Shown: in pieces, positions 5,825 to 38,461 of the stretch
Numbering within the stretch: the first letter of the stretch is position 1
Layout of the letters: the number at the start of each line of letters is the position of its first letter
Virus record (IMG/VR): IMGVR_UViG_3300027974_001530
Source: a virus
Lineage: Duplodnaviria > Caudoviricetes
Direction: 5' to 3' (one strand)
DNA length: 64,000 nucleotides
Position numbers and translations under genes: made by a program
Notes under the pieces: model-generated
Database searches by the model: none
Seen by the model: only the letters and a program-made list of their open reading frames with translations
Told to the model about the DNA's origin: nothing

Positions 5825-7639
5825 TTAACTGTTTAGTAATTTATCAAGTTCTTGTTCTATATCCCCTAAAGAATTTGACGCCTTTGATAAATCAATATAT
5901 TCATCCCCAAATATATCATCACTTTCTAAAAGTAAGTTTAAATTATTTTTCTTAATACTTTCAGGGATTGGTGGTCCTCCTGCCGACTCTGCTCCTCCAG
6001 GTGGTGGAGGTGGTCCTCCTCCCATTGGTGGAGGTGTTGACCCTCCTGCTGCTGGATCGGCACCCGCAGTTTGGGTACTTCCTGTTTGAGTTTTATAAAG
6101 TTTATCTACAGTATCAAAGAATCCTGTGTGAGTAATTATTGTTGGTGTATTTGCCAATTCGGCTGACACCGCCCTTTCTAATCTTATTTGTTGTAATTCT
6201 AATTTAATTTCTTCATCAGAAAAACCAAAAATATGTTTTTTAGCCCAAGTTGCGGATGTAGGTTGTAGTGAATTTGGAATTTCTGTAACCATATCCTTAT
6301 ACAATAAAACCTTTTCTTTCCATACCTCAACCATTAATAGATCGGCCTGTTTAGATGGGTTAGTTAAACCTAAAGTAAAGTTATTTAATTCATCCTCAAA
6401 CCCAAGTAAAAATAAATGTATAATCGCAATTTTATTTAATTCCGAAATTATACTTTTTTGTATTTTATGAATAGTTCTTGCAAATCTAATATCTAATAAA
6501 GATAAATTTTTACCATCACCCACCGCTTCCTCAAAACCTATATACGCTTTTGGTATTCTTAATGCGGTTAATAATTTCTTTTGGATATATTCAATATCAG
6601 CAATCTCAGAAAGATTTGCGGCTCCCGCCAATGTCTCAATAGGCATTGTCTGTGTTGCGTCCCTAACAGGAATAAAGTAATCTTGATCTACCGCCATTTG
6701 GTTGAAACGTAAATCAACATTACCTGTTTTAGAATCAACAATTTGATCTCGTTTAAATTTATTCGCAACTCTTTGTACGTAAGCCTCAACATCTTTATCG
6801 TCCATATTACCAACAAAGACTTTAAATACTCTTCTTTCGGGAGCTCTTGATGTTCTATAAATTAACATAGCATCTTCCGCTAATACAAGTTGTTTCCATA
6901 TTCTACGAGCCTTTTCTAACATTGATGTACCATATGGTAATTTTCTATCATCACCTAGCAATCTAAAATGGGCCATTTCCCAAGTGTTAAACTCCATATC
7001 CTTATTTTTCCAAGTAAACCTTAAGTTTTTCTCGTTTTTTATTGATGGAGTGGTGTTCATAGTTCTGGCTTCCATGCCTCTTTCTAATCTTTCAATTTCA
7101 ATATTAGGTAATTGCATACAACTTACAATACCTTTTTCAGGATCAAGTTTTAAGTAAACAAAGTTATCACCATACTTACACATGTTTCTTACCCACATTT
7201 GTAAGTTTGTATTAATATCTAAATTATTATTAAATAAATCTACTAAGATACTTTTAATTCTTTGTGATTCAGAATAAACTTGTAATATAAACCCATCATG
7301 GTTTGATGTTGTTGACTCCTCAGCATATATATCCAAGGCCGTTGAGATTTCTGGAGTATATTCCATAGATTCGTAATCGTAGAATGCAGAAATTCTGTTT
7401 GGTTCATAATATACCGCTTGACTGTATAAGTTATTTTCAATCTTTTTCCAATTATCACTTAAAAATAAAGTTTGTTGTATTTCTAATTTCTCTTTTTCAA
7501 ATTTAGACTTATCGGTAGTCTTTAATATTTCTTTTTTATCAAACCTATAGGTAGGATCATCCATCCCTAATAATGAATTAGGTCCGAACGTTTTGGATAA
7601 TCTTTGCCAAATCGTTAAATTTTTTTCGTTTTGTTCCAT
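5825..7639 (-). CDS. Portal vertex protein (T4 gp20-like)
   Basis: EDAMLIYRTSRAPERRVFKVFVGN, QDYFIPVR, IEYIQKKLLTALRIP motifs. Confidence 0.96.
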   Translation of the reverse strand: MEQNEKNLTIWQRLSKTFGPNSLLGMDDPTYRFDKKEILKTTDKSKFEKEKLEIQQTLFLSDNWKKIENNLYSQAVYYEPNRISAFYDYESMEYTPEISTALDIYAEESTTSNHDGFILQVYSESQRIKSILVDLFNNNLDINTNLQMWVRNMCKYGDNFVYLKLDPEKGIVSCMQLPNIEIERLERGMEARTMNTTPSIKNEKNLRFTWKNKDMEFNTWEMAHFRLLGDDRKLPYGTSMLEKARRIWKQLVLAEDAMLIYRTSRAPERRVFKVFVGNMDDKDVEAYVQRVANKFKRDQIVDSKTGNVDLRFNQMAVDQDYFIPVRDATQTMPIETLAGAANLSEIADIEYIQKKLLTALRIPKAYIGFEEAVGDGKNLSLLDIRFARTIHKIQKSIISELNKIAIIHLFLLGFEDELNNFTLGLTNPSKQADLLMVEVWKEKVLLYKDMVTEIPNSLQPTSATWAKKHIFGFSDEEIKLELQQIRLERAVSAELANTPTIITHTGFFDTVDKLYKTQTGSTQTAGADPAAGGSTPPPMGGGPPPPPGGAESAGGPPIPESIKKNNLNLLLESDDIFGDEYIDLSKASNSLGDIEQELDKLLNS

Positions 7640-18984: not shown

Positions 18985-20064
18985 TTACAAAATAATACCT
19001 TTTATTTTTTTAAGTTGTTCAAATAATTCAGGATGGTAAAGTGATAAATTTAAATCCTCAACATTATCCACAGATCTATCTTCTGAAGGATGGTTTGGTT
19101 TTCTAGAGGTAAAATTAAGTTTTCCTGTTTTTATATCTAGATCTGAAAAGTACACTTCAATTTTTTTTGAGGGGATATTAATCCATCTTCTAAAACCTCC
19201 TAATTTTTCCACAATATTAAACAATTCGTTGTACCTTTCAAAACTTACATCTTCAGATAAATCTTCTTCTACCTTTTCTAAGATATCATTTAAATGACGG
19301 GCAGTTTCTTTGTGAAAAGAGTCCCATTCAAAATCATCACACCAAACATTATATTCCAATTCATACCAGTTACCTCTAGATTCTCTATCGTATTTTGTTA
19401 ACATTAACTTTAATAATTCTGGTATATCAAAATTTTTGGCCTCTAAAGTCTCGTACCAATGTATTAATACACCTAAAGTGGTTTTAAATCTGTAATTCCC
19501 ATAAGTCTCACTAATCCCAAGTTTTTTAAATGGATTTTTAGTTTCATTTTTTAAAACATTACTAACCGCCCTTCTAGTACAGTCTTGGTTCAAAGAACCA
19601 TATTCACTAACAATATATTCAATATCACCAAACCTTTTGTCTAAATAAGTCGCAATAATACCCATATTGGCATCCGTATCGTCATCTCGTAAAACCATTG
19701 ATGGGTTAACTAATCTTAGAATTTGTTTAACCAAGTTAAGATTTTCTGGACTAAATTCTTTTAATATGTACCCCTCTTTCCAATCTTCTTCATATCTGTA
19801 ATAATCATAATCATAATCGTAATAATAATTATCCATAAATTTATTCCACACATAGATATCTTCCTCATCCTCAATACCTAAAATTTTAAAATATTCTTCA
19901 GTATTTTCAAATTCAAAATAAATAACACTTGATGACGGGGAATCATAATTGTATTTAATATCATCGATTATATCAGGATACTGGTATTTACTAAATCTAA
20001 CATCCGTTAAATCCTTTTTTGATAATTTTTTTAAATATTCGTATGTTTCCCCAATTTCTGACAT
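18985..20064 (-). CDS. Hypothetical protein (359 aa)
   Basis: Long acidic, Tyr-rich ORF. Confidence 0.8.
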   Translation of the reverse strand: MSEIGETYEYLKKLSKKDLTDVRFSKYQYPDIIDDIKYNYDSPSSSVIYFEFENTEEYFKILGIEDEEDIYVWNKFMDNYYYDYDYDYYRYEEDWKEGYILKEFSPENLNLVKQILRLVNPSMVLRDDDTDANMGIIATYLDKRFGDIEYIVSEYGSLNQDCTRRAVSNVLKNETKNPFKKLGISETYGNYRFKTTLGVLIHWYETLEAKNFDIPELLKLMLTKYDRESRGNWYELEYNVWCDDFEWDSFHKETARHLNDILEKVEEDLSEDVSFERYNELFNIVEKLGGFRRWINIPSKKIEVYFSDLDIKTGKLNFTSRKPNHPSEDRSVDNVEDLNLSLYHPELFEQLKKIKGIIL

Positions 20065-20085
20065 ATAAAATAAATATCAAAATAT

Positions 20086-20116
20086 TTTGATTATTGTAAT
20101 TTACCCATTATATTTG
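20086..20116 (+). promoter_or_regulatory. Bacteroidota sigmaA-type promoter of tmRNA
   Basis: TTTG-N19-TATATTTG, followed by boxA-like GTTATTTGACA at 20134-20144. Confidence 0.8.
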
Positions 20117-20147
20117 TATTTATATAAACAAAAGTTATTTGACATAT

Positions 20148-20558
20148 GGGGGTGTTTTTGGATTTGACAGGTATTGGCTGAGAATAAAGGGCACGTAGAG
20201 ACTGAATTAATCTCTTTAAAAACTGATTCACAAAAACAATCGGCGACGTTTTATCGAAAATGGAAACTCTTGGTTTACTAAGAGGTTCTGAAGTTACTGT
20301 AGCTTAATTAGTTAACGGAAACGGGGGTCGGTGGACACATAACCTAGCAACAGAAGTCCTTTAAGGTGGAATACGACTGAACCCGAAATCGAGTCGTTTA
20401 TTGGTTGTTAGTTTACGATAATGAAGAACAAACTAACCTTGTTTTCGATCAAGTTAAAAATCGAATATTTTGGAACGTTAGAAAATGTTAACCTAAACGT
20501 GTAGTCCTTGTTTGACAGGATATTATGGACCGGAGTTCGAGCCTCCGCACCTCCACCA
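20148..20558 (+). ncRNA. ssrA: tmRNA
   Basis: 5' GGGGGTG..TTTGGATTTGAC; 3' T-arm CGGAG-TTCGAGC-CTCCG and CACCTCC-ACCA with G3:U; tag ORF 20242-20307 GDVLSKMETLGLLRGSEVTVA*. Confidence 0.95.
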
Positions 20559-20641
20559 ATTAAAATCCCCATCTTTATGGTGGGGATAAAAAAAAATAAC
20601 TATCTTTATAAAAAAATCATTAATTTAAACCTTTAATAAAA

Positions 20642-21088
20642 ATGAAAACATTATTTTTTTCTTTAATCATGACATTGTCAAGTTTTTTGTCATTTTCCCA
20701 AAAAAATGTAAATATTTTTGCCACAGACTTTTATGATTTTACTATGACTATAGATGAGTTAATGTATTTTATGAGTACAGACTCAACAATGAATAGATGG
20801 TCATATATGGAAAGTTATGAATCAGATTATTTTATGGTTTTTAATATCAACTTTAAAGAAAATAATGTAATATCAAGTGTTGATGAAGGAGATACGTTAA
20901 AAAATTATCAAATTACATCTAAAAATATTTTAAATAATAAAAATATTTTTTTAAGTATTTCTGACTCTAATAGTAAATCACGAATGGTTGTAGTTTATAA
21001 AAATAATCAACCATTTAGATTGATCACTTACCATATTGAGGGTAATTACGCTATTGGGTATATATCAAAAAACGTAAGTCTACAATAG
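20642..21088 (+). CDS. Hypothetical exported protein
   Basis: Signal-peptide-like N-terminus MKTLFFSLIMTLSSFLSFSQ, similar to 17138..17560. Confidence 0.7.
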   Translation: MKTLFFSLIMTLSSFLSFSQKNVNIFATDFYDFTMTIDELMYFMSTDSTMNRWSYMESYESDYFMVFNINFKENNVISSVDEGDTLKNYQITSKNILNNKNIFLSISDSNSKSRMVVVYKNNQPFRLITYHIEGNYAIGYISKNVSLQ

Positions 21089-21124
21089 ACTTACGTTTTT
21101 TTTATCTCCATAAAAATCTCTTTA

Positions 21125-21622
21125 TTATGCGGTAACGTTATACAATTTACAAATTGCATCAGTCATTTCGCTTCCAGCCGTAAATCCAGGTCGACCCCAA
21201 GTAACTAATACACCTTTTGCGTTTTTAGTTTTACCACCGGCCTTGATTGTGAACGGGTCTTTATATCCTCCTTGGACCACGGCCTTAACCGCAGTTTCTA
21301 CCTCAGCTCTTGTTTTAGGGGTTGTATTAAGGAAAACACCAAATGCCGTCCTTTGATCTATATTTGTTGGGTCTGCCTCTGTGTTAACTACTTGGAAACT
21401 TCCATCTCTCATATTCATTAAATTTCCTAAAGTTTTACTACCCGCAAAATTTACGTCCCATGCCGTCCCATTTTTTTTATATTGTAATTGCGGGAACAAT
21501 GCACTTTTATATCCAGTTACCGAATCAAACGCTAAAACAGTATTTTGAGCAAATCCTTCACTAATTACTCTTCTTACTATTCTTGCAAGATCTGATTCTG
21601 TTAGTCTAATTATTCTTTTCAT
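21125..21622 (-). CDS. Hypothetical protein with RLTESDLARIVRRVISE N-terminal motif
   Basis: ORF track; shared motif. Confidence 0.85.
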   Translation of the reverse strand: MKRIIRLTESDLARIVRRVISEGFAQNTVLAFDSVTGYKSALFPQLQYKKNGTAWDVNFAGSKTLGNLMNMRDGSFQVVNTEADPTNIDQRTAFGVFLNTTPKTRAEVETAVKAVVQGGYKDPFTIKAGGKTKNAKGVLVTWGRPGFTAGSEMTDAICKLYNVTA

Positions 21623-21680
21623 AATGTAAAATTATTTATTTATCTTTAAATATAAATACATCAGTATATAAAAAAAAACA

Positions 21681-21710
21681 AAAAAAAAGGGATCGATTCA
21701 CATCGTCCCT
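21681..21710 (-). terminator. Intrinsic terminator downstream of the large ncRNA
   Basis: AGGGACGAT-GTGA-ATCGATCCC followed by T8. Confidence 0.75.
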
Positions 21711-21749
21711 ATTAATTTTTTTCTTATAAGATTTAACCTAAAAATAAAA

Positions 21750-22620
21750 ACCTGAGATTACAGTTTTTGTAAGTGTCTTTCGAGTCATTATTGGTTCTAC
21801 TCTTATCCACAGGATTTTGTCCTGTAACACTCATTACCGATTGGTTAGACCAATCACTCCTTGACGACATAACTACTCTCTTACTAATCCTGTCTCCTCA
21901 AGATTGCGTCCTGATTCGGTCTTCGACGACCTAGAGATTTTTCATAAAAATACGGTCAAACTTGCGGTTATCACGTTCCACTGACTGCCAGTGAATAGGT
22001 GGGTAACTTCCGTTATATCGTGACGGACACTTTTGCTTTATAGTTTATAAATGTTACTTCATTAACATAAAAGTTTTTGTGTCGTGGATTGGTCAAAGCA
22101 GTGGTCCGTCTTAAGCTTCATTATCTTTTGAATAACAAAATACCAAACTGCCTCGTGAAATGTCCCCATTTCAATATTTCAAGATTACTTCGAGATTAAC
22201 CCCTTGGTAGAAGTTTATCAAGGACAATGTCAGCACCACCTGTTTGTTGTCATACCTTTCGGTTTTAAGTACCCTATCGTACTGAGACCCGCAATAACAA
22301 CATTGGAAATATTGATTCTTGCATCGTCCCTACGAGTTATTCCTATTAGAGTTCCCTCCTCAACAAGATGACCCACATCACCTCATCATAAAATCACTTT
22401 CCCTACACCGTTGGCCTCGGTACTAAAGATTTTATGGTATCTCGCCTGTGTACTCGACCTCAATGATCCGAAGACCATTAAGACGCAAACCCGTTACACT
22501 TGGGGGTTCACTTTATCCTACTTTCGTAGTTTATTTTATGGACTATACACGGCCCAATATCTTTATCAGTTTCATTCTTAAACCCGAAGGTTCTTAACTT
22601 AATCCTGAACGGATAATATC
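21750..22620 (-). ncRNA. Large structured ncRNA, GOLLD/ROOL-like (boundaries approximate)
   Basis: ~870 nt with no ORF of 60 aa or more and GC above the flanks; many hairpins with UUCG/GNRA loops; tandem promoters, boxA and terminator; 3' end GTAATCTCAG resembles GOLLD/ROOL ends as recalled. Confidence 0.65.
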
Positions 22621-22625
22621 TAACT

Positions 22626-22780
22626 TTTCAAAGAACGTTATCGGACTTTTCCGATTTGTTTTACAAAGATAAGAATACTTTTTGAATTTTCCAAATTTTT
22701 TCTAAACTTTTTTTATTTCTTATTTGGACGTTTTCCAAATTTGTTTTACAAAGTTACGACATTTGTTTTGTTTTGTCAAG
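22626..22780 (-). promoter_or_regulatory. Tandem Bacteroidota-type promoters plus boxA-like element
   Basis: CTTG-N20-TAACTTTG (22780-22749), TTTG-N20-TATCTTTG (22695-22664), GTTCTTTGAAA (22636-22626). Confidence 0.8.
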
Positions 22781-22797
22781 TACTTTGTGAACTTTTT

Positions 22798-22947
22798 TTA
22801 ATATTTTTCTACGTAAACTTTAAACGTCCCGTATTTTCTTGCCATAACATCGGCAAATTCAAAATTTGGAGTAAAAAGTCTTTGACCTTTATCGTTAAGG
22901 TAACTAAAAAGTTCGATCTCGATTACTTGTGTTTCTAATTCTGTCAT
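22798..22947 (-). CDS. Small hypothetical protein (49 aa)
   Basis: Manual translation MTELETQVIEIELFSYLNDKGQRLFTPNFEFADVMARKYGTFKVYVEKY. Confidence 0.55.
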   Translation of the reverse strand: MTELETQVIEIELFSYLNDKGQRLFTPNFEFADVMARKYGTFKVYVEKY

Positions 22948-23018
22948 TTTTCTTGTTTTTAAATATACAACAATTATAAACCATATATTTTAAACAGTCA
23001 ACAAAGTCATTAAAAAAA

Positions 23019-24542
23019 TTAAGACCATCCTTGTTGTTTTGCAAATTCTTGCCTTTTTATTTTTGCGGAAGTCCTATCTGAAGGTCTCTCAACATTATCA
23101 ACAATCCAATCTATCCAAGTTCTTACGTCCTTCTCACTGTTAATTTGTTCTTCTTTTATTCTTTTTGACATAAACTCAACTTGTTTATTATAATCAAATA
23201 AAATTCTTAATTTTTCTTCATCTGAAGAAGTATCAACATTTACGTTATAGTTCTTCAAGAATGAAACTCCCATTCCACCACAAATATTATATTGCCATAA
23301 ACCAAAAGAACAGTATTTTTTACCATCAATGTTTATTGATCTATTTGAACTTTCCCCGTAACTTCCTGAATCCCCTTTAGCCTTAACGTTAAAAACACTT
23401 TCACCAAAAGCGTTTGCAACAACTCCTTTGGCGGCATTATCTGAAAGACCATAAGATTTTAAATCATTAAGAAGTTTTATTGGAACTACTTTATCAATTC
23501 CTCCACCTACGTAAATACTTTTATTAACACGTAAAATTTGGTTCCCTTTATCTGTTACAGTATTTGGACAAATATTATTTATTGTTTTAACTAAACTTTT
23601 AACAAATAGTTCATCTCCATAATTCATTTCACTATTAATGTAATCAAATACGTCTTTATATTTTTTCCCATCAATTTCCTTTCTTTCAACCATTTTATTT
23701 AGTTCATCAAGTTCATAACAACTACTTAATTTTTTAATTGCATCATGTATTGAAGTTTCATCGGTACCGATACCTTCTGAAGATAGTATTATTTTATTTA
23801 AGACTCCAGATACGGAATCAGTATTAACATCAACGTCTGTAATACCAAATCTTGAAGCAATACCACTTATATCCGATTCAGGTCTTTTAATATCTAAAGA
23901 ACTTAGAGCGGCTGCGGTTAATCCGGCTGCCGTACCCATTATTGTTTTAGTGTCAATAGGGGTTTCTTCACCTTTACTTGTTGTAATTGATAAATTACCT
24001 AATAAACTATTATCCACACCCTCAATATTACCGTTTACGTCAACGAAATCTTTAACATCACCAACTTTAACTGAAACGTGTGCATGATCAGGAATTCCTA
24101 ACTCACCCTTTACGATATATGCAAGTAATTGACCTTTTTTAATAGGATCCCCATCCTCAACAACAATATTTGTAATATGGGTATAAAAAACGTCAGGATT
24201 ACCACCACTACCCCTAACGGTAATACTGTCACCATAAATTCTTTTACCTCCACTAGATTTTAATCCGGGAGGGTTATCTGTAATTTTATCAACATATCCA
24301 TCGGATATTGAATAAACAGGTGTACCTTCAGGTGCCATTATATCGTAGGCGTTATTACTCCACCAATCCTTTCCTGTTGGGTCTGGATGTCTTGCGGCAT
24401 GTGAATTAGGTCCTCCTCCCCAAGTAGGATCCACTTTATCAAATATTTTAGTTGAAAATTTAGGTGCCGTAGTATCTATTGATTCATTAATTGACATTAA
24501 TGTTTTTATTCTTCTTATTTCTTCAGATAAAAAATGTTTCAT
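23019..24542 (-). CDS. Multidomain peptidoglycan hydrolase: M23 peptidase, annexin-like repeat, phage tail lysozyme
   Basis: YDIMAPEGTPVY..FYTH..HAH (M23); GIGTDE; AAKGVVANAFGES..FGLWQY (lysozyme). Start re-called at MKHFLSEE behind a TATTTATA motif. Confidence 0.85.
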   Translation of the reverse strand: MKHFLSEEIRRIKTLMSINESIDTTAPKFSTKIFDKVDPTWGGGPNSHAARHPDPTGKDWWSNNAYDIMAPEGTPVYSISDGYVDKITDNPPGLKSSGGKRIYGDSITVRGSGGNPDVFYTHITNIVVEDGDPIKKGQLLAYIVKGELGIPDHAHVSVKVGDVKDFVDVNGNIEGVDNSLLGNLSITTSKGEETPIDTKTIMGTAAGLTAAALSSLDIKRPESDISGIASRFGITDVDVNTDSVSGVLNKIILSSEGIGTDETSIHDAIKKLSSCYELDELNKMVERKEIDGKKYKDVFDYINSEMNYGDELFVKSLVKTINNICPNTVTDKGNQILRVNKSIYVGGGIDKVVPIKLLNDLKSYGLSDNAAKGVVANAFGESVFNVKAKGDSGSYGESSNRSINIDGKKYCSFGLWQYNICGGMGVSFLKNYNVNVDTSSDEEKLRILFDYNKQVEFMSKRIKEEQINSEKDVRTWIDWIVDNVERPSDRTSAKIKRQEFAKQQGWS

Positions 24543-24553
24543 ATATGATTTTA

Positions 24554-25036
24554 TCATATAAATACTTCGTCGGGTTGAAACCAACTTGGAATAACCCTGT
24601 TTTTCCAACTAACGATAAGTTTTTTTCCTTCTCGGTAATAATTTCTATATGATTCGATCACATCGTTTCCTATTTTAAATTCATCACCCATCGCTAATGG
24701 TGGGGATGTAAAATCAACATCGTGGATATTTGGTTTATTTATTAAACACCATTCTATTACATCCTGAGATTTGTGTCTTTTACCATATCGATAAGTGTAT
24801 TCTTTACATAACTCCAAACCAAGATCACATAAATAAAGATAATTTGAGAGGGACTCTCTAACCCATATTGAACATGGGTGATTTTTGTGGGATAATTTAT
24901 ATGGGGCCTCATTTCCAATTACCCAGTGAGTCCCACATAAAAGTTGTGCGGTTTCTAATATCATCTTGACAACGTGTTTATCACAATGATATTGAGCGCA
25001 TTTTTTTGTATCAAAATCTAAAAAGAAAATATTCAT
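24554..25036 (-). CDS. Pyrimidine-dimer DNA glycosylase / T4 endonuclease V-like
   Basis: MNIFFLD..CAQYHCDKHVVKMILETAQLL, HKNHPC..W. Confidence 0.85.
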   Translation of the reverse strand: MNIFFLDFDTKKCAQYHCDKHVVKMILETAQLLCGTHWVIGNEAPYKLSHKNHPCSIWVRESLSNYLYLCDLGLELCKEYTYRYGKRHKSQDVIEWCLINKPNIHDVDFTSPPLAMGDEFKIGNDVIESYRNYYREGKKLIVSWKNRVIPSWFQPDEVFI

Positions 25037-25072
25037 ACCGTAAAGATATGAACTTTAATTGTATTTACAAAA

Positions 25073-25681
25073 TTATTGTTGTAAGTGCGTCATTAAAACT
25101 CCACCTAAAGAGGTTGCATGAACCAATAAATGATTTATTGATTCAATGTCAAGTTTTGTTTTTCTTTTTGTGTAATCAAGACCTAAAGTACCTATAAACC
25201 TATCATCAATTGTTTTAATTGCAAATAAGTAACTTGATTTACATCCCGTGTCTTCGGCAATGTATTTTAATCCGTATGTTGCAATTGTTTCATCTTTGAA
25301 GTCGGACACCTCAATTACATCATTACTTAATAATTGATTTATTGATTTTGAAAATAAATTTACGGGAATATTATGAAAATTAGTTTGTACGGATTGAACT
25401 CCTGGATGTACTGTTTCGTACATTATTGAAAACTTAGCCATTGATTTACCTGTTGGGTAGAAGTTACCTCCATTGTGAAATTGAGTTATCCAAACTCTAT
25501 CGGCATTAAATTCATCTTTAATATGTTCTATTTTGTTTGTTACCAACTCCGCAACCCTCAATGTGTCTTTAACCATATCCGGTTTTTCTTTATTCTCTAA
25601 TTTCTTTTTAATATAAAGAAGTAATATGGGACCAACAACTCCTGTTATAAATGCTATTATAATTCCTACATAACTTTCCAT
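25073..25681 (-). CDS. Single-TM protein with GAF-like domain (T4 holin T-like topology)
   Basis: N-terminal TM, then ADRVWITQFHNGG..IGTLGLDY GAF-like pattern. Confidence 0.55.
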   Translation of the reverse strand: MESYVGIIIAFITGVVGPILLLYIKKKLENKEKPDMVKDTLRVAELVTNKIEHIKDEFNADRVWITQFHNGGNFYPTGKSMAKFSIMYETVHPGVQSVQTNFHNIPVNLFSKSINQLLSNDVIEVSDFKDETIATYGLKYIAEDTGCKSSYLFAIKTIDDRFIGTLGLDYTKRKTKLDIESINHLLVHATSLGGVLMTHLQQ

Positions 25682-31852: not shown

Positions 31853-31897
31853 AGATAAGGGAATTTCTGAGATCTACAAAATTTTTTTAAAAAAATG

Positions 31898-31969
31898 TAG
31901 CCCCACCTAGAATCGAACTAGGAACTAATCTTTAGAAGAGATTCGTTATATCCATTTAACTATGGGGCC
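31898..31969 (-). tRNA. tRNA-Arg(TCT)
   Basis: Manual cloverleaf; loop CTTCTAA. Confidence 0.95.
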
Positions 31970-32013
31970 ATTTTTAATATAGTAATATTTTACTAAAAAA
32001 TAAATATATTTTG

Positions 32014-32088
32014 TGGTCCCAGCAGGACTCGAACCTGCGACCCCTTGATTATGAGTCAAGTGCTACTAACCAACTGAGCTATAGGACC
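32014..32088 (-). tRNA. tRNA-CAT (elongator Met or Ile2)
   Basis: Cloverleaf; loop CTCATAA; G1-C72 paired; C4-G69. Confidence 0.9.
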
Positions 32089-32092
32089 TTTG

Positions 32093-32167
32093 ATGTCAGG
32101 GTGGGATTCGAACCCACAATGAGCAACCATAAAGGACTCGGCACCATGCCTCATTACACTCCTGACA
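32093..32167 (-). ncRNA. Non-canonical tRNA-like RNA, copy 1
   Basis: TGTCAGG/CCTGACA acceptor and canonical T-arm; no canonical anticodon arm. Confidence 0.7.
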
Positions 32168-32177
32168 AACAACGACT

Positions 32178-32264
32178 CTTCAGCATTCTACTCCCCGCAC
32201 ATACATAAATGTAACACGAAATTGTATCTAATTTAACCCTACGTTGGCGGTACGGGTACTGAAG
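32178..32264 (-). ncRNA. Unassigned structured RNA
   Basis: Stacked closing helices CTTCAGTA/TGCTGAAG and CCCGTAC/GTGCGGG. Confidence 0.45.
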
Positions 32265-32272
32265 TTTATCAT

Positions 32273-32359
32273 TGGTACTCGAAGAGGGACTCGAACCCTC
32301 ACAACCCACTGGTCAACAGAGCTTAAACCTGTCGTGTCTACCAATTCCACCATCCGAGC
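32273..32359 (-). tRNA. tRNA-Leu(TAA)
   Basis: Class II cloverleaf with encoded CCA. Confidence 0.95.
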
Positions 32360-32370
32360 ATTTTAAAGAG

Positions 32371-32433
32371 TTATTTTCTCTTTCTTACCATAAAGATAAA
32401 CAAAACAAATAATACAAATAATATTGGTGTCAT
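32371..32433 (-). CDS. Hydrophobic mini-peptide (20 aa)
   Basis: MTPILFVLFVLFIFMVRKRK. Confidence 0.3.
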   Translation of the reverse strand: MTPILFVLFVLFIFMVRKRK

Positions 32434-32449
32434 AATTTTTTAATATTTG

Positions 32450-32523
32450 TAGTCAGGACAGGACTCGAACCTGCAATCTCCCCAACATTCTGTCGGGGCG
32501 CGTTACCAATTAGCCACCTGACT
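32450..32523 (-). ncRNA. tRNA-like RNA with 9-nt anticodon loop (ACAGAATGT)
   Basis: Acceptor AGTCAGG/CCTGACT, D- and T-arms present; loop lacks U33. Confidence 0.7.
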
Positions 32524-32531
32524 AAATATTG

Positions 32532-32670
32532 TTGATAGTGATGGAGTACCCTTCTCGCTCCAATCTTAACTGCGTCTTCTGAGTTTTCTCAGGGCCCCGG
32601 CAGAGGGTGCTGAATTCCTGATCCACTCTGGATTGTCGACATCCGTTGAGGTGGGGAAAACCACTATCAA
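32532..32670 (-). ncRNA. Unassigned ~140-nt multibranch RNA
   Basis: 10-bp terminal helix TTGATAGTGG/TCACTATCAA; four internal hairpins; directly after boxA-like motif. Confidence 0.7.
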
Positions 32671-32690
32671 TATTTCAAAGAACTCTCTTT

Positions 32691-32766
32691 TGGCGGAGAT
32701 TACGGGAGTCGAACCCGCTCCGAACGCCGTGACAGGGCGACATCTTAACCATTTGACCTAATCTCC
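32691..32766 (-). tRNA. tRNA-Asp(GTC)
   Basis: Cloverleaf, G73, CCA. Confidence 0.95.
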
Positions 32767-32826
32767 AATAACCACACTTTAAAACCGTAGAGGTACAACT
32801 TGTGTGCTATGTTGTTCATTTCATTG

Positions 32827-32898
32827 TAGTCCCACCGGGAGTCGAACCCGACTTTCCAGGATGAAAACCTGGCGACCTAACCGATAGTCGATGGGACC
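32827..32898 (-). tRNA. tRNA-Glu(TTC)
   Basis: Cloverleaf; loop TTTTCAT. Confidence 0.93.
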
Positions 32899-32909
32899 AT
32901 TTTGTTTTA

Positions 32910-33191
32910 TTACAAACCTAACATTTCACCAACTTTTTTGAAATGTTTTTCAATTTTATTCAAAGAGGAGGTAGCCTTTTGTTTGGTTTTGAAGTACACG
33001 TAGAACTGACCACTTTCAGAATCAAATTCACCATCAATCTTTAAGACATTCTGAACAAAACTTTCAAACTCATATGCGTCTTCCCATTCACGGATTGTGT
33101 TTTTGTTTGGGTATCCTGTCAAACAATAATCATATCCCTCAATCTTTATAATTCTTAAACCTACTGTTTTAATTGTCTCTGTGTTTGTCAT
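32910..33191 (-). CDS. Hypothetical protein
   Basis: ORF behind a TTTG-N20-TATCTTTG promoter. Confidence 0.75.
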   Translation of the reverse strand: MTNTETIKTVGLRIIKIEGYDYCLTGYPNKNTIREWEDAYEFESFVQNVLKIDGEFDSESGQFYVYFKTKQKATSSLNKIEKHFKKVGEMLGL

Positions 33192-33428
33192 AGTTCTTTA
33201 TTTTTGTTCTACAAAGATATGTAATCTATTTTGATCTACCAAATCTTTTTTTAAATTTTTTTGTGGGACCCGCTCCCCACCCTAAACTTGTACTTCGTTC
33301 TATTAAGCGTTTTTTTCAGTTTCTTCAACCAGTCAGTATTCGTGTTAACTCTAATCATTTTAACTTTCGATGACTCTGAGGTTCCTGATAAAACTTCTCT
33401 CATCATTCATTTGTATTAATTGTTTATT

Positions 33429-33501
33429 TGGTGGACACTGTGGGAATCGAACCCATACGATCTGATTGCAAATCAGTCGACCTGCCGTCGGCATCAGGCC
33501 C
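33429..33501 (-). tRNA. tRNA-Ala(TGC)
   Basis: Loop TTTGCAA, G3:U70, CCA; imperfect acceptor stem. Confidence 0.8.
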
Positions 33502-33506
33502 ATTTG

Positions 33507-33578
33507 TGCGGGTAGAATGAATCGAACACTCGTCTCCACATTGGAAGTGTGGAGTAATAACCATTATACGATACCCGC
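33507..33578 (-). tRNA. tRNA-Gly(TCC)
   Basis: Cloverleaf; loop CTTCCAA. Confidence 0.93.
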
Positions 33579-33584
33579 TTATTG

Positions 33585-33665
33585 TACTGACGGTTGGATT
33601 CGAACCAACGTTTTAAACTTACCACTACAGTCATAGACGATATAAGCGTCCACTGGTACGTCAGC
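33585..33665 (-). ncRNA. tRNA-like RNA without a D-arm
   Basis: Acceptor GCTGACG/CGTCAGT and T-arm GTTGG/CCAAC; middle folds as a long stem capped by a CTTATAT loop. Confidence 0.7.
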
Positions 33666-33671
33666 ATTTAG

Positions 33672-33742
33672 TAGCGGATTCAGGGCTCGAACCTGGCCTC
33701 AGGGTTATGAGCCCCGTGTGCTACCAATTACACTAAACCGCA
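33672..33742 (-). tRNA. tRNA-fMet(CAT)
   Basis: 1:72 mismatch; three G-C pairs closing loop CTCATAA. Confidence 0.85.
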
Positions 33743-33747
33743 ATATG

Positions 33748-33869
33748 TAGGTAAAACAGGATTCGAACCTGTACGATATAGTTCCCTTTTCAAGAGACAT
33801 CCCCAGCTATATCTCGGTGACTTCTTACGGGGAATAAACCTAAGCGTCTGCCAATTCCGCCACTTACCT
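33748..33869 (-). ncRNA. 122-nt tRNA-like RNA with Leu-type D-arm and ~70-nt central domain
   Basis: AGGTAAG/TTTACCT acceptor, GCGGAATTGGCAGACGC D-arm, ACAGG-TTCGAAT-CCTGT T-arm. Confidence 0.75.
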
Positions 33870-33882
33870 ATTTAAAATTTTT

Positions 33883-33957
33883 TTGTCAGGGCCGGACTCG
33901 AACCGGATAAGCAACCTATAGGATTCGGGCACCGTCCCTCATTACGCCCACCTGACA
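33883..33957 (-). ncRNA. Non-canonical tRNA-like RNA, copy 2
   Basis: Paralog of 32093..32167; same length and conserved core. Confidence 0.7.
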
Positions 33958-33969
33958 AATTTATGTAGT

Positions 33970-34054
33970 TAGTAGTTGACTCACACTCTTGTTTCACCAT
34001 CTTGAGCCAACAGGTTAATGTACTTTACAAGTTTCCCGTTTCTTACAACCACTA
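33970..34054 (-). ncRNA. Unassigned structured RNA
   Basis: 9-bp closing helix TAGTGGTTG/CAACTACTA; GCTCA/TGAGT arm; follows boxA-like GTTCATTGAAA. Confidence 0.5.
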
Positions 34055-34155
34055 TATTTTTATTTCAATGAACTTCTTCTGTCTTCACGGGAGTAGGACA
34101 CCAACCTCTCACTTCCTACCCCCGTTGTTTGTCTTACAAATATACAAGGTTTTTT

Positions 34156-34320
34156 CTAATCTACCAAACTTTTTTTGTGTTTTTCTTTCCTTGTGTAATT
34201 ATTTTTTAAATCCATAGATCTAGTAACAAATCTACCATCAAAAAAACCTTGTTCTTTTTGAGCAACCCTTTGACTACCCAAGATCATCTTATGTACGATA
34301 TTTTTTTCCTTTGTTTTCAT
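34156..34320 (-). CDS. Small basic protein, ArfA-like C-terminal motif (54 aa)
   Basis: Manual translation ends FDGRFVTRSMDLKNNYTRKEKHKKSLVD. Confidence 0.5.
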   Translation of the reverse strand: MKTKEKNIVHKMILGSQRVAQKEQGFFDGRFVTRSMDLKNNYTRKEKHKKSLVD

Positions 34321-34321
34321 T

Positions 34322-34612
34322 TTAACAGTATCTTAAAATTTGAGTAATTAATTTATTTATATCCTCTTTAGTCTGATAACCCAAAACATCATTAGTTATT
34401 TTTGTGTCATAAGAAATTTCCCAATCATCTTTTGTTCCTTTAATAACGGCGACCTCATAATCATCATCATCTGAAGTATATGATCCACCCCCACCAAAAG
34501 GAGATTTAAATCTTACAACCGAGATTCCGTATCCTCCAGGAAAAAACAGTAATCCGTGAACCCCATTACCAATACCATGTGGTTTAAACTCTATATCATC
34601 AAATGTTATCAT
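34322..34612 (-). CDS. Hypothetical phage protein
   Basis: FPGGYGISVV..YEVAVI; start re-called at MITFDD behind a promoter. Confidence 0.75.
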   Translation of the reverse strand: MITFDDIEFKPHGIGNGVHGLLFFPGGYGISVVRFKSPFGGGGSYTSDDDDYEVAVIKGTKDDWEISYDTKITNDVLGYQTKEDINKLITQILRYC

Positions 34613-34850
34613 AAAACAAAGATACTGTTTATTTTTTAATTTCCAAAATTTCAAAGAACAAAAAAACCCACCTCTTTTGGAGATGGGTTTTCAAAATTTA
34701 TTATGTGTTAAATTATCATACCATCTCCTTATAGGAACGATCCTCAGCTATCGCCAATCCGCCTAATAATATGATATGTAAATTTTTCATTTGCGTTTTT
34801 ATTTGTTTTGTTATAAATATATGATACTTTTTAAAAGTGTCAAGTTTTAT

Positions 34851-35183
34851 TTAATAATTTCCATCTTCATCGTCGTAATCTTCATCTTCTTCACCAACTA
34901 TTGCGTAGTTAAGTTCATCAAGAATTACATTAACAGGGATCTCATCACCTTCTTCATTATAAAACATACCTTCAGTTCCATACTCAGAATAGTCAACAAG
35001 AGTAGACCCCTCTTCAACAAGTTCATTATACATGTCAATGACATCTTGTGGGTTAGCACTTTTTCCAAGTTCCATTCTAACACCCTCATACATACTTGGG
35101 ATACGAATCATACCCTCTTTATTTTCATTAATTACACGTTTAACAATACGTGATAAGTCTCTTTCTGTTAATCTATTTCTCAT
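34851..35183 (-). CDS. Hypothetical protein with RLTERDLSRIVKRVINE motif
   Basis: ORF track; shared motif. Confidence 0.85.
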   Translation of the reverse strand: MRNRLTERDLSRIVKRVINENKEGMIRIPSMYEGVRMELGKSANPQDVIDMYNELVEEGSTLVDYSEYGTEGMFYNEEGDEIPVNVILDELNYAIVGEEDEDYDDEDGNY

Positions 35184-35206
35184 TTTTATGTTTTTTATAT
35201 TTTTTA

Positions 35207-35539
35207 TTATGCATATTCTTCATCATCAAAGTCTTCGTCCTCATCGGCATTATAAAAACCTTCTTGGTTTAATAATTTTTCAATTTCATCAGCTAAATCT
35301 TCATTATTATCAGCATATAACGCCTCAATAATATCAAATTCATCCATTGAATTGATTTCTTCAATGTCATATCCACATTCATTTTCAAGGAAATCTCTCG
35401 CCTCTTCAATTAACTCTTGAAGTTCTTCACTATAGTACGGATCATACATACTTCTGTCTTTATAGTTGTCATTTTCATTAATTACACGTTTAACAATTCT
35501 TGTTAAATCTGATTCTGTTAGTCTAATTACTTTTTTCAT
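35207..35539 (-). CDS. Hypothetical protein with RLTESDLTRIVKRVINE motif
   Basis: ORF track; shared motif. Confidence 0.85.
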   Translation of the reverse strand: MKKVIRLTESDLTRIVKRVINENDNYKDRSMYDPYYSEELQELIEEARDFLENECGYDIEEINSMDEFDIIEALYADNNEDLADEIEKLLNQEGFYNADEDEDFDDEEYA

Positions 35540-35578
35540 TAAATGTTTTATTAATAAATATTCAATATACGATTTAAA

Positions 35579-35821
35579 TCACCACTTTCTTTTTTTATCA
35601 AGTTTTTTTGTTTTTTGATCCTCGATCATAGTTGCGTACTCATCTTTGGTTAATCTTTTAAAAGACTCATTATCCACATTACCAAATCTTTTTTTTGCAC
35701 TCGCCATTACTTGGATGAAGTTCTTACTCCACAAAATATTTGACCCTGCGACTTTACCGTTTTGAATTATATCAAAAACGTATAGGTATTCTCCTTCTTT
35801 ATTTTTCATCAACTTTTCCAT
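35579..35821 (-). CDS. Hypothetical protein (80 aa)
   Basis: Track ORF trimmed to MEKLMKNK because the upstream part overlaps two tRNAs. Confidence 0.7.
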   Translation of the reverse strand: MEKLMKNKEGEYLYVFDIIQNGKVAGSNILWSKNFIQVMASAKKRFGNVDNESFKRLTKDEYATMIEDQKTKKLDKKRKW

Positions 35822-35840
35822 CTTCACTTTTTTTTGTTTG

Positions 35841-35914
35841 TACCTCCGGCAGGACTCGAACCTGCAAAATTCACTTTCTAAGAGTGACGTGTATACCAAT
35901 TCCACCACGAAGGC
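35841..35914 (-). tRNA. tRNA-Leu(TAG), short variable loop
   Basis: Leu-type D-arm; loop CTTAGAA; variable region only ATTTT. Confidence 0.85.
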
Positions 35915-35921
35915 ATTTTTG

Positions 35922-35994
35922 AGCTCAGGGAGGGATTCGAACCCCCGTACCAAGGTTTTGCAGACCTGGGCCTAAACCACTCGACCACCTGAGC
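35922..35994 (-). tRNA. tRNA-Cys(GCA)
   Basis: Cloverleaf; U73. Confidence 0.95.
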
Positions 35995-35996
35995 AA

Positions 35997-36452
35997 TTAA
36001 CGGCAGTGGTGATCTGCCGCTCTTGTTGCAATTTGATTGTCAGGTTTAATATTTGCTTTATAACCTAACGACGTTGCCCACCCAACAACAGGAGAAACAA
36101 GTTTTGAACTGTAATGTTTATCTTCACAATTATAATCCAAATCTATTTCAACCTTAACTTTTACTTTTTGAGTTAACCATTCGGCAACCTCAATTGAATA
36201 ATCGGCTTCATTCCAAAGACGTGTCCACTTGTCTTTTATTTTTTTCACTTTTTGTTTGTGTAGGATGTAGTGAACACCACGATTACCATACCTGTAAGCA
36301 ATTACCGTAACATATACGGTACTTCTTCTATGGTTTTGTGAATCGGTTCCAATATGGATCTCAACCCATGGACATTCCTTTAAAACATCTAAGGTGTGTT
36401 TAACCACATCAGGTATCGCTTCACCATTAATTGTCCTAAATACTCTGTTCAT
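35997..36452 (-). CDS. YkuK/DUF458 RNase H-like protein
   Basis: IHIGTDSQ, RLWNEADYS, EIDLD, ATRAAD. Confidence 0.85.
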   Translation of the reverse strand: MNRVFRTINGEAIPDVVKHTLDVLKECPWVEIHIGTDSQNHRRSTVYVTVIAYRYGNRGVHYILHKQKVKKIKDKWTRLWNEADYSIEVAEWLTQKVKVKVEIDLDYNCEDKHYSSKLVSPVVGWATSLGYKANIKPDNQIATRAADHHCR

Positions 36453-36468
36453 TATTTCTTTTTATTTG

Positions 36469-36541
36469 TGGACAGAGAGGGTGTCGAACCCCCGACTCCA
36501 GGATCTTCAATCCTGAGCTCTACCAACTGAGCTACCTGTCC
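36469..36541 (-). tRNA. tRNA-Phe(GAA)
   Basis: Cloverleaf; loop TTGAAGA. Confidence 0.95.
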
Positions 36542-36604
36542 TTCTTCAGGGAGGACTTGGTTGAGGTATCCTAATGGTTCTACCCTCAACTCTCGCCTCC
36601 CGTC

Positions 36605-37099
36605 TTATTTAACTTCAAACGCATGAAGTAATACACGTTTTTTCTTGGTTGAATCCTCGTGGTTACCAATTACCACACCATCTTTGATTGTGAAAGCGTG
36701 ACGACTAACTAACATAAAGAATGTCCCAATAGGGTTTTGTTTTGTAAATGTACCCACAGTCATTTTACGTTTAACTCTCTCACCCTTTACTTTAACATCG
36801 TACTCCAAAGTGTGTCTACGGTAATTGTTTAATTTACCAACACACTTAACTTTTTTGTAGTTTACTTGACTTCTATTTTCTGCAAGTTTAGTCATTTTAT
36901 CTACAGTACCATAAGTACCGTTACGATCTCTACGACCAAAATTTTCTCTAACGTATTTGTGAGCGTAATCGTAAGACACATCAAAACAAGATGCAAATGC
37001 TCTTACAACACAATCGTTGGTTTCATTTTTTGCGATTGCAGATTCTTCATAACCTTTAATGGCTTTTCCTGTATTACAATATGGTAGTGCGTCTTTCAT
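36605..37099 (-). CDS. Hypothetical phage protein (NDCVVRA motif)
   Basis: Cys and His motifs NDCVVRAF..SRHAFTIKDG; Bacteroidota-type promoter upstream. Confidence 0.8.
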   Translation of the reverse strand: MKDALPYCNTGKAIKGYEESAIAKNETNDCVVRAFASCFDVSYDYAHKYVRENFGRRDRNGTYGTVDKMTKLAENRSQVNYKKVKCVGKLNNYRRHTLEYDVKVKGERVKRKMTVGTFTKQNPIGTFFMLVSRHAFTIKDGVVIGNHEDSTKKKRVLLHAFEVK

Positions 37100-37145
37100 A
37101 CTGTAAAGATACGAAATTTTTTTTAACTGGCAAAATTAATTTTTG

Positions 37146-37217
37146 CACATGGTGTTAGAATCGAACTAACCCGTCGAGGTTTTGGAGACCTGACCGACAC
37201 CTTGTCTGTACCATGTG
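37146..37217 (-). tRNA. tRNA-Trp(CCA)
   Basis: Loop CTCCAAA; G73; irregular D-arm. Confidence 0.8.
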
Positions 37218-37224
37218 TGTTTTG

Positions 37225-37297
37225 TACCCCCACAGAGATTCAAACTCCGATCTTTCCCTTAGAAGGGGAACGTCCTGTTCAGTTGGACGATGGGGGC
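37225..37297 (-). tRNA. tRNA-Arg(TCT), second copy
   Basis: Cloverleaf; loop CTTCTAA; T-loop TTTGAAT. Confidence 0.9.
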
Positions 37298-37301
37298 AAA
37301 T

Positions 37302-37478
37302 AAAAGATGATAAATGACTTTATCAGGAATCTGGGGTTCGTATCACTACGACGCTTCACACACCATTAGAGAGTTGGGTTGTTACATCAATACAATTAAG
37401 ATTGAATACCTTTCCTTAGTGTGTACCCTTACGACACGTCTCTCCACGTCTGTCATTCTACGTTTCTTATCATCTTTT
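37302..37478 (-). ncRNA. Unassigned ~177-nt structured RNA
   Basis: Perfect 12-bp closing helix AAAAGATGATAA/TTATCATCTTTT, flush between two tRNAs; possible pseudoknot. Confidence 0.65.
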
Positions 37479-37479
37479 G

Positions 37480-37552
37480 TACCTTCGGCGAGACTCAAAC
37501 TCACATCTTGTGGTCCGTAGCCACAGGTTCTATTCTATTTAACTACGAAGGT
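37480..37552 (-). tRNA. tRNA-Arg(ACG)
   Basis: Cloverleaf; loop CTACGGA. Confidence 0.9.
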
Positions 37553-37687
37553 AATTAAAGAATTTTGGTCAACCACTCGCATCCCACCAATCTCTTGTAT
37601 CAAACTTTCTGTAGTCCAAACGATAACATCTCCTACTACTCATTCTCAACTCACTTGCCTAAGCCTTGTCCGTTGTAAATTCTTTTG

Positions 37688-37761
37688 GGTGAATGGTGGG
37701 TTTCGATCCCACTACTTTCGGCTTCACAAACCGACGCTCTCCCGATTGAGCTACAAACACC
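37688..37761 (-). tRNA. tRNA-His(GTG)
   Basis: G-1:C73; loop TTGTGAA; T-loop ATCGAAA. Confidence 0.88.
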
Positions 37762-37767
37762 ATATAG

Positions 37768-37835
37768 TCCCGTATGTTGGACTTGAACCAACCTCAAGTC
37801 GGATATGAGCCAACTTTGATCCCTGATCATACGGG
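37768..37835 (-). tRNA. Atypical tRNA-CAT with reduced D-arm (68 nt)
   Basis: CCCGTAT/ATACGGG acceptor; GTTGG-CTCATAT-CCGAC anticodon arm. Confidence 0.7.
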
Positions 37836-37849
37836 TTGTTGTTTTATAT

Positions 37850-37923
37850 CTATCCGGAAATTTTCCTAATAGATTATTCAATTGTAGATGTCTATCCGGA
37901 AAAAAAGTCATCCTATCCGGAAA
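37850..37923. repeat. Three direct repeats of CTATCCGGAAA
   Basis: Copies at 37850, 37892 and 37913. Confidence 0.8.
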
Positions 37924-37941
37924 ATTTCCGGATTTTAATCG

Positions 37942-38027
37942 AGGAAGACATTGGAATCGAACCAAATACCCTTACGGGTACATCTCGCTTAGCAGGCGGA
38001 CCCTATCTCCATCAAGGTTTATCTTCC
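37942..38027 (-). tRNA. tRNA-Ser(GCT)
   Basis: Class II; loop CTGCTAA. Confidence 0.88.
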
Positions 38028-38085
38028 ATAGAGTGTGGTACTCCTGCAGTAGTTGGGGCACCCACACAAGTTATTCCCCTTTTTG

Positions 38086-38158
38086 TGCTCACGATAGGTT
38101 ACGATCCTATTCTCTCCACGATATCAGCGTGGTGCTTTCCCGATTAAGCTACGTGAGC
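38086..38158 (-). tRNA. tRNA-Ile(GAT)
   Basis: Cloverleaf; T-loop ATCGTAA. Confidence 0.92.
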
Positions 38159-38165
38159 ATTGTTG

Positions 38166-38238
38166 CGGACAAGGTAGGGTACGATCCTACAACCCTCGTA
38201 TTAACAGTACGATGCTCTCCCAATTGAGCTACTTGTCC
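38166..38238 (-). tRNA. tRNA-Asn(GTT)
   Basis: Cloverleaf; G73; T-loop ATCGTAC. Confidence 0.93.
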
Positions 38239-38244
38239 ATTTTT

Positions 38245-38330: not shown

Positions 38331-38338
38331 AGTTCAGG

Positions 38339-38456: not shown

Positions 38457-38461
38457 CTTTG

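Follow-up and report, generated by a model that had tools for sequence, protein, structure and literature searches.

The 64,000-nucleotide (nt) window analysed here is a stretch of viral DNA (Duplodnaviria; Caudoviricetes) from the IMG/VR record IMGVR_UViG_3300027974_001530. Its minus strand carries a gene for GOLLD, which is among the largest RNAs known from bacteria and phages. GOLLD was reportedly described by Weinberg et al. in 2009. The window is phage DNA, with genes for a large terminase, an M23 peptidase/tail-lysozyme protein and a Clp-type ATPase. It also contains 22 transfer RNA (tRNA) genes at 31897–39231 and a transfer-messenger RNA (tmRNA) gene on the plus strand at 20148–20558 (104 bits). 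The GOLLD locus lies close to the tmRNA gene and ~9.7–17 kilobases (kb) away from the phage tRNA genes, and a phage or prophage context, often near tRNA genes, is usual for GOLLD. From the distal promoter to the terminator, the locus comprises the following features:

22749–22779, minus strand: predicted distal promoter P1, with TTGACA at 22779–22774, a 20-nt spacer and the −7 box TAACTTTG at 22756–22749

22723–22748, minus strand: first leader copy, TAAAACAAAT and then the hairpin TTTGGA-AAACG-TCCAAA (22739–22723), with no boxA after it

22664–22695, minus strand: predicted proximal promoter P2, with TTTG at 22695–22692, a 20-nt spacer and the −7 box TATCTTTG at 22671–22664

22640–22663, minus strand: second leader copy, TAAAACAAAT (the probable start region) and then the hairpin ATCGGA-AAAG-TCCGAT (22655–22640) in a boxB-like position

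22625–22636, minus strand: boxA-like element GTTCTTTGAAAA with the core GTTCTTTGAAA, ~28 nt past the −7 box, the hairpin 22655–22640 lying in between

22557–22624, minus strand: 5′ extension from boxA to the structural core, with semi-conserved ATTATCCGTTCAGGA, a variable hairpin and then AAACTGATAAAGATATT

22156–22556, minus strand: GOLLD 5′ domain, whose counterpart in the solved GOLLD makes up the nanocage cap; it shows covariation and is covered by RNA contigs

22322–22332, minus strand: exact internal copy of TAGGGACGATG, the sequence of the terminator 5′ arm at 21711–21701, lying within two conserved 5′-domain helices

21749–22155, minus strand: GOLLD 3′ domain (RF02032), including an A/U-rich variable linker (~22093–22025) and the kissing loop UCGAA (~21923–21919)

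21741–21748, minus strand: U-rich tail past the last GOLLD hairpin, with a possible mature 3′ end at 21741

21670–21709, minus strand: predicted intrinsic terminator, GGGACGAT, the loop GTGA and ATCGaTCCC (21709–21689), then T9-G-T9

An Rfam scan matched 22155–21749 on the minus strand to RF02032 (GOLLD) over the whole model (positions 1–416 of 416); the match scores 287 bits, well above the gathering score of 150, with an E-value of 5.7e-81. ROOL was absent from the 25 above-threshold Rfam matches in the window. The feature is a GOLLD RNA, a new sequence of a known family; of the two names that an earlier note on this DNA had offered from 3′ similarity, GOLLD is borne out and ROOL is not. ROOL is likewise a large, ornate, cage-forming phage RNA found near tRNAs, but it is unrelated to GOLLD in sequence and fold.

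RF02032 covers only the conserved 3′ domain of the two-domain GOLLD RNA. The window contains the full layout, with a structured 5′ domain of ~400 nt, a variable linker and the 3′ domain, more than 800 nt in all, and its A/U-rich linker aligns to an unpaired stretch of the Rfam model. Relatives were gathered with a 3′-domain motif, independently of the leader. This pattern returned 106 viral-contig stretches, and a local nhmmer screen found the GOLLD 3′ domain in 97 of the 110 collected loci. An alignment of 45 non-redundant leader-plus-5′-domain sequences was used for covariation; its 5′-domain consensus fold has 103 pairs, of which 71 show compensatory double changes. Insertions and deletions among relatives are not multiples of three and are accompanied by compensatory stem changes. 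No open reading frame (ORF) longer than 56 amino acids (aa) was found on either strand between 21733 and 22597. The structured body, from ~22556 to ~21741, measures ~815 nt and the primary transcript from the proximal promoter would measure ~980 nt, sizes that agree with the ~870 nt of noncoding sequence described before.

Solved GOLLD RNA forms a 14-subunit cage in which the 5′ domains are the caps and the 3′ domains the rings, with a disordered linker directed inward (Kretsch et al., 2025; PMC12286853). The first elements of the 5′ domain of the window, from ~22556, are a hairpin and the AAATAAACTACGAAAGTAGGATAAAGTG block, and the construct of the env-38 GOLLD used for cryogenic electron microscopy (cryo-EM) begins at the same point. 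The blocks after AAATAAACTACGAAAGTAGGATAAAGTG likewise agree with env-38, and the first ~190 nt visibly match the construct. The symmetric kissing loop L21a switches solely between GC and CG (Kretsch et al., PMC12286853). In the lake clade, 46 sequences have GC as the kissing-loop dinucleotide (B8), and the other 14, among them that of the window, have CG. These two states of the loop, the only inter-subunit contact looked at, are in favour of, without proving, an assembly of the window copy like that of the solved GOLLD, and by homology the body from ~22556 to 21741 would form a 14-subunit cage with other copies. Compared with env-38, the window RNA has the same two-domain layout, the same type of 5′ domain and a self-complementary kissing-loop dinucleotide, although its loop is of the rarer CG type. 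Unlike the GOLLD RNAs described and solved so far, the window gene adds a promoter-proximal leader of ~100 nt, made up of the hairpin, the boxA-like element and the 5′ extension (22557–22624), all upstream of the start of the env-38 construct.

Contigs from lake RNA libraries show that GOLLD RNA is made in nature. Six lake-water metatranscriptome runs contain 67–74% of the sampled words of the window. Three RNA runs and one DNA run other than the source were compared over 19000–25500 by their contigs only. All three RNA runs yielded contigs identical to the window from 21741 to ~22534 (22568 in one run), at a word depth of 60–90. The same runs gave no contigs from 19000–20085 or 22689–25500, both of which the DNA run covers evenly at ~8–16. 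This coverage pattern is the one expected of abundant RNA and not of DNA carry-over, and it bears out the transcription that had been postulated for the feature. The RNA contigs cover neither the leader at 22569–22663 nor the stretch from 21740 to the terminator nor most of the flanks, and thus say nothing on processing or on silence there. In all three runs they end at 21741, where a DNA contig (21580–22050) runs on. This is a weak hint that 21741 is the 3′ end of the RNA, 8 nt beyond the Rfam model and ahead of the terminator. The stops at 22533–22535 were also considered as RNA ends and discarded as assembly breaks, since a DNA contig breaks at 22536/22539 too. Over the conserved ACTACGAAAGTAGGATAAAGTG (22494–22535), the summed word depth in the three metatranscriptomes is near 800, with contigs diverging on either side, which points to many other GOLLD variants in the same RNA samples.

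Promoters of Bacteroidota follow a pattern of TTG near −33 and TAnnTTTG at −7. P1 and P2, each with a 20-nt spacer, presumably belong to this type. A scan for the sigma-70 consensus reported nothing at either, because the promoters appear to be of the Bacteroidota type, on which such a scan gives no information. In most relatives, a TAnnTTTG box lies 34–36 nt upstream of the boxA-like motif. Three relatives (L001, L004 and L089) have ACAAAGTACTTGAC...TAACTTTG as their only proximal promoter, and a P2-type promoter is present in three others (L090, L074 and L053). The 16S leaders of Bacteroidota use TACCTTTG, and their TAnnTTTG promoter is followed by G[AT]TCTTTGAAA. The segments after the two promoters, already noted as near-duplicates, are indeed a 69-nt direct repeat (D1) with 71% identity and a spacing of 85 nt, each copy containing TAAAACAAAT and a hairpin. 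A hairpin precedes boxA in 43 of the 45 aligned relatives; its stem occurs in five or more distinct sequences, and some of the hairpins are long alternative forms. At the other end, the terminator expected to close the unit is present as a bulged hairpin (21709–21689) followed by nine T; an automatic scan missed it because of the bulge. Five relatives have an identical copy, and a hairpin with a T-run is found in 33/45.

A 49-aa ORF at 22798–22947 (minus strand) lies immediately upstream of the GOLLD promoters. It is conserved at the protein level in two relatives (L001 and L004) and has no family match in Pfam or PHROGs. Further upstream, the 3′ end of the M23/lysozyme gene contains two back-to-back, near-perfect matches to sigma-70-type promoters, at 22973–23001 on the minus strand and 23165–23194 on the plus strand. 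They score 11/12 and 12/12, which is unexpected beside the otherwise Bacteroidota-type signals of the phage. The match on the minus strand could read via the 49-aa ORF into GOLLD.

The boxA-like motif after the promoters, another element that the earlier note had seen, lies at 22636–22625 (GTTCTTTGAAAA). Its core GTTCTTTGAAA agrees at 10 of 11 positions with the gammaproteobacterial consensus GYTCTTTAANA (PMC5725501). It agrees equally well, at 10/11 positions, with GAUCUUUGAAA, the boxA of B. subtilis rrn operons, which binds NusB and follows a 5′ hairpin (PMC13753749). The closest counterpart is found in Bacteroidota. The extended form GTTCTTTGAMATATTG, taken from the phage tRNA spacers, occurs at listed loci of which 60 of 80 are Bacteroidota by name. 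In seven of eight Bacteroidota loci (Rfam) it lies in the 16S–23S spacer before the 23S gene, in six of them behind the spacer tRNA genes, and this place is the classical position of the spacer boxA. Altogether, 29 of 81 sites are located 36–246 nt upstream of a 23S gene. The window core GTTCTTTGAAA is identical to that of the Bacteroidota spacer boxA, and leader copies of the motif were found in rRNA operons of four genera. The exact 16-mer GTTCTTTGAMATATTG also occurs 80–159 nt before the 23S gene in assemblies of Berkelbacteria, Methylotenera and Nostoc (L142, L164 and L165), so this form of the spacer boxA is not exclusive to Bacteroidota.

The strict form of the motif, GTTCTTTGA[AC]A, has six copies in the window against 0.15 expected, every one on the minus strand. 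Three of the six exact copies are at RNA genes, namely in the GOLLD leader and in the spacers after tRNA-Asp and tRNA-Thr. When up to two mismatches to GTTCTTTGAAAA were allowed, no enrichment was seen (34 copies in the window versus 28 expected), and only the strict core is therefore informative. One-mismatch copies are found at two further RNA loci. The tRNA cluster that starts with tRNA-Met at 33742 is headed by another complete leader in the style of rRNA, at 34000–34110 (minus strand); this leader consists, in order, of TATATTTG, TAAGACAAAC, a long hairpin (ACGGGGGTAGGA...TCCTACTCCCGT) and GTTCATTGAAAT. At the tmRNA gene (plus strand, from 20134), a TATATTTG box is followed by GTTATTTGACAT, a one-mismatch copy that ends 2 nt before the mature 5′ end.

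Conservation of the leader was counted over 63 distinct GOLLD loci with enough upstream DNA. The strict motif was found in 51 of these, 409–523 nt upstream of the 3′ domain, and near variants in eight more, so that a hairpin plus motif or near variant heads 59/63. The motif is wanting only in the four most divergent of the 63. Where GOLLD follows a tRNA and has no promoter of its own, as in L023 and in the 634-kb phage LR745206 (L232), the hairpin-plus-motif is still kept. By comparison with env-38, the motif lies outside the cage-forming construct, which starts ~70 nt downstream.

The locus thus resembles an rRNA operon in several respects, and at the level of sequence the idea that this RNA is expressed like one holds up well. 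In E. coli, rRNA operons are arranged with P1/P2 and boxB-boxA-boxC. The window has tandem host-type promoters and an untranslated transcript whose first 40 nt contain a hairpin and then a near-consensus boxA, and the motif is reused in spacers after tRNAs. It differs in that its cargo is a phage RNA, in that tandem promoters are inconstant among relatives, in that no boxC was recognised, and in having no leader-trailer processing stalk. Such a stalk is not conserved among the relatives (median z 0.3).

Phages are known to use the boxA of their hosts, as in the lambda nut sites and the boxA of the T7 early region (PMC2724277, PMC3709561). Like lambda and T7, the window phage sets a host boxA behind promoters for the host polymerase, an arrangement for termination-resistant transcription. 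In lambda, boxA precedes boxB and the N protein of the phage is required, whereas the window has the hairpin first and boxA second, the order seen in rRNA leaders, which does not fit a lambda-type nut site. The cargo also differs, being messenger RNA in lambda and T7 and a stable structured RNA in the window. Neither NusB nor NusG was found in the window or in a relative genome (G002) that is 99% complete, N-like factors beyond these two not having been sought, and host factors would therefore be used.

Taken together, the locus encodes a GOLLD RNA with a host-rRNA-type promoter-hairpin-boxA leader, and we consider it probable that this RNA is transcribed with Nus factors loaded at the leader and that its body forms the cage. 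Host RNA polymerase would start at either of the Bacteroidota-type promoters. Within its first 40 nt, the transcript would then present a small hairpin followed by GTTCTTTGAAAA, in the order and nearly the sequence of rRNA leaders and of Bacteroidota 16S–23S spacers. This boxA could load host NusB/NusE (S10), and hence an rRNA-type antitermination complex, onto the polymerase, the phage apparently supplying no NusB or NusG of its own. In this way, the polymerase may reach the end of a 0.9-kb untranslated RNA without being stopped by Rho, and the RNA may perhaps fold while it is being transcribed, before its release at the intrinsic terminator. The RNA body would join other copies in a 14-subunit cage, with the leader left outside the body.

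Several observations weigh against this account. Of the two tandem host-type promoters claimed earlier, both are present in the window, but the arrangement is shared by only about a third of the relatives. By itself, TAnnTTTG shows no enrichment in the AT-rich DNA of the window, and the promoter call therefore rests on its conserved position. Two of the exact boxA-like copies lie inside ORFs (a shorter match, GTTCTTTGAAC, lies in a third ORF), and one lies past a terminator and before an ORF promoter. No boxC-like element was recognised, there being no obvious GU-rich element after boxA, when scored without a Bacteroidota consensus. The GOLLD of Streptococcus phage Javan345 and its metagenomic relative differ in their 5′ domain and are without the boxA leader, which indicates that GOLLD as such can do without it. 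It is likewise missing from three or four divergent metagenomic GOLLDs, and the leader is a feature of the lake subfamily and not of the whole family. The metatranscriptome contigs give no strand, transcript ends or levels, and thus no measure of the very high expression that had been read from the promoter and boxA layout, and the RNA runs share year and habitat and may stem from one sampling campaign. The binding of NusB/NusE and antitermination are predictions for the GOLLD leader, as they are for the Bacteroidota at large, and the argument for cage assembly of the window GOLLD is one of homology only.

Among the alternatives, the one that survives best is that GTTCTTTGAAA is chiefly an RNA-processing signal, at which a nuclease of the host or the phage trims the precursors of GOLLD, tRNAs, tmRNA and rRNA. 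The motif does occur in stretches that the mature RNAs no longer contain (2 nt ahead of the tmRNA 5′ end, directly after two tRNAs and in the rRNA spacer), and it lies outside the cage-forming GOLLD body. Genuine boxA elements, however, sit in removed segments too. The motif also has the hairpin-first layout of the boxA elements whose binding of NusB has been defined by experiment in E. coli and B. subtilis, and shares 10 of 11 positions with them, and the lack of a conserved leader-trailer stalk likewise argues against processing. We regard a chiefly processing role as rather unlikely, although it could coexist with the loading of Nus factors.

It is considerably less probable that the motif is a structural part of GOLLD, for instance one that pairs with the 3′-domain loop UUCAAAAGA or closes the molecule, and that its likeness to boxA is a coincidence. 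The motif is almost invariant and stands at a fixed distance from the 3′ domain; its UCUUU could pair with a loop AAAGA, and RNAalifold pairs CUUU with the start of the 3′ domain over 4 base pairs (bp). The cage-forming cryo-EM construct nevertheless begins downstream of the motif, and the same motif occurs at tRNA, tmRNA and host rRNA genes. The 4-bp pairing, the only one predicted, is not backed by compensatory changes and is an artefact of where the alignment was cut; the partner of CUUU is part of the first stem in the Rfam 3′ domain. Pairing with the loop was rejected, as UUCAAAAGA remains constant when the motif varies or is absent and never covaries with it.

A further proposal concerns the 11 nt of the terminator 5′ arm that recur inside the RNA. 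The internal TAGGGACGATG might compete with the terminator 5′ arm for the 3′ arm and so form a long-range switch of termination or 3′ end formation. The repeat at 22332–22322 is real and exact, and a chance repeat hitting the terminator arm is fairly unlikely (a few percent by a rough estimate). The identity is not kept among relatives. In the five relatives with an identical terminator, the internal site reads TAGGGATATTG or TAGGAATATTG, and in L030 it reads TAGGAACGATG beside an unrelated terminator. The internal copy is also paired in two covarying 5′-domain helices, and some exact 11-mer repeat arises in 39% of shuffles of this AT-rich region. The identity is probably a coincidence, and the chance of a switch seems to us slighter still than that of a structural motif.

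Finally, that the stretch codes for one or more small proteins, with an incidental RNA structure, can practically be set aside: ORFs of 30–56 aa do exist on both strands, but none is conserved, and the full-length covariance-model match, the 71 covarying pairs and the length changes out of multiples of three all argue for an RNA.

Returning to the Nus-loaded GOLLD leader, the recurrence of the boxA-like motif or its one-mismatch variant in two tRNA spacers, in the leader of a tRNA cluster and before the tmRNA suggests that GOLLD belongs with other stable RNAs of the phage that are related to translation and are produced like host rRNA. Tentatively, this could amount to a ‘stable-RNA regulon’ of lake Bacteroidota phages, comprising tRNA blocks, tmRNA and GOLLD and transcribed by host RNA polymerase that the host NusB/S10-boxA complex has converted; the complex would be required for escape from Rho and also, as a co-transcriptional chaperone, for the folding of the 0.9-kb RNA and its assembly into the 14-mer. 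We hold this broader proposal to be possible, though doubtful as it stands. If true, it would tie GOLLD to the machinery of ribosome synthesis and give a first experimental handle on its function. Our best guess for that function is an action on the translation apparatus of the infected cell, in which the cage would hold or organise tRNAs or ribosomes.

The GOLLD family and the use of boxA by phages were both known before. A leader of the rRNA type before GOLLD appears to be unpublished: no paper linking GOLLD to boxA was found in the searchable literature, a scope outside which the 2009 discovery paper lies, whose supplement might mention the leader. The present results add that GOLLD genes of the lake subfamily are nearly always headed by a hairpin and boxA of the host rRNA type, that the signal shared with phage tRNAs and tmRNA places GOLLD among translation-related stable RNAs, and that the RNA, which could be assembled from small lake metatranscriptomes, is made in nature. 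They lead to a testable hypothesis of Nus-dependent synthesis, and possibly folding, of GOLLD, for which the leader and cage parts are now delimited. To our knowledge, rRNA antitermination has not been studied in Bacteroidota, for which the leader documents a likely boxA.

A related observation concerns ROOL. In supplementary file 5 of Kretsch et al., a block with names from the human gut and the rumen, probably the ROOL alignment, shows UGUUCUUUGAUAU in several rows. A boxA-like motif may thus accompany some ROOL genes too.

The source of the window is an uncultured lake-water jumbo phage of about 290 kb, whose host is probably a member of the Bacteroidota. With the flanking M23/lysozyme gene as the query, we retrieved four syntenic IMG/VR loci (L001–L004), three of them on contigs of 274–291 kb. 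All four carry GOLLD at the same site (320–328 bits), with the tmRNA gene beyond. The phage collection contained no close relative, only partial matches from one megaphage and one Streptococcus prophage. The nearest genome record (G001) is a fragment of 20% completeness that lacks GOLLD.

Three minor observations were made on the surrounding genes. In L004, at 5745–6339 on the minus strand, a group I intron match (RF00028, 96 bits, 5745–5966) borders on or overlaps with a weak match to tmRNA (56 bits, 5942–6339), and a group I intron may interrupt the tmRNA gene of this phage or be fused to it. In the window, an Rfam tRNA match of 122 nt at 33748–33869 (minus strand) scores 32.7 bits over all 71 model positions and was not called by ARAGORN; this match, which adjoins the tRNA-Met at 33671–33742, may represent a tRNA gene that contains an intron or a large insertion. 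In the DNA run X3, the depth rises to ~340 at 19651–19867, within the ORF at 18985–20064, against ~10 around it, which suggests a segment common to many other genomes or a repeat.

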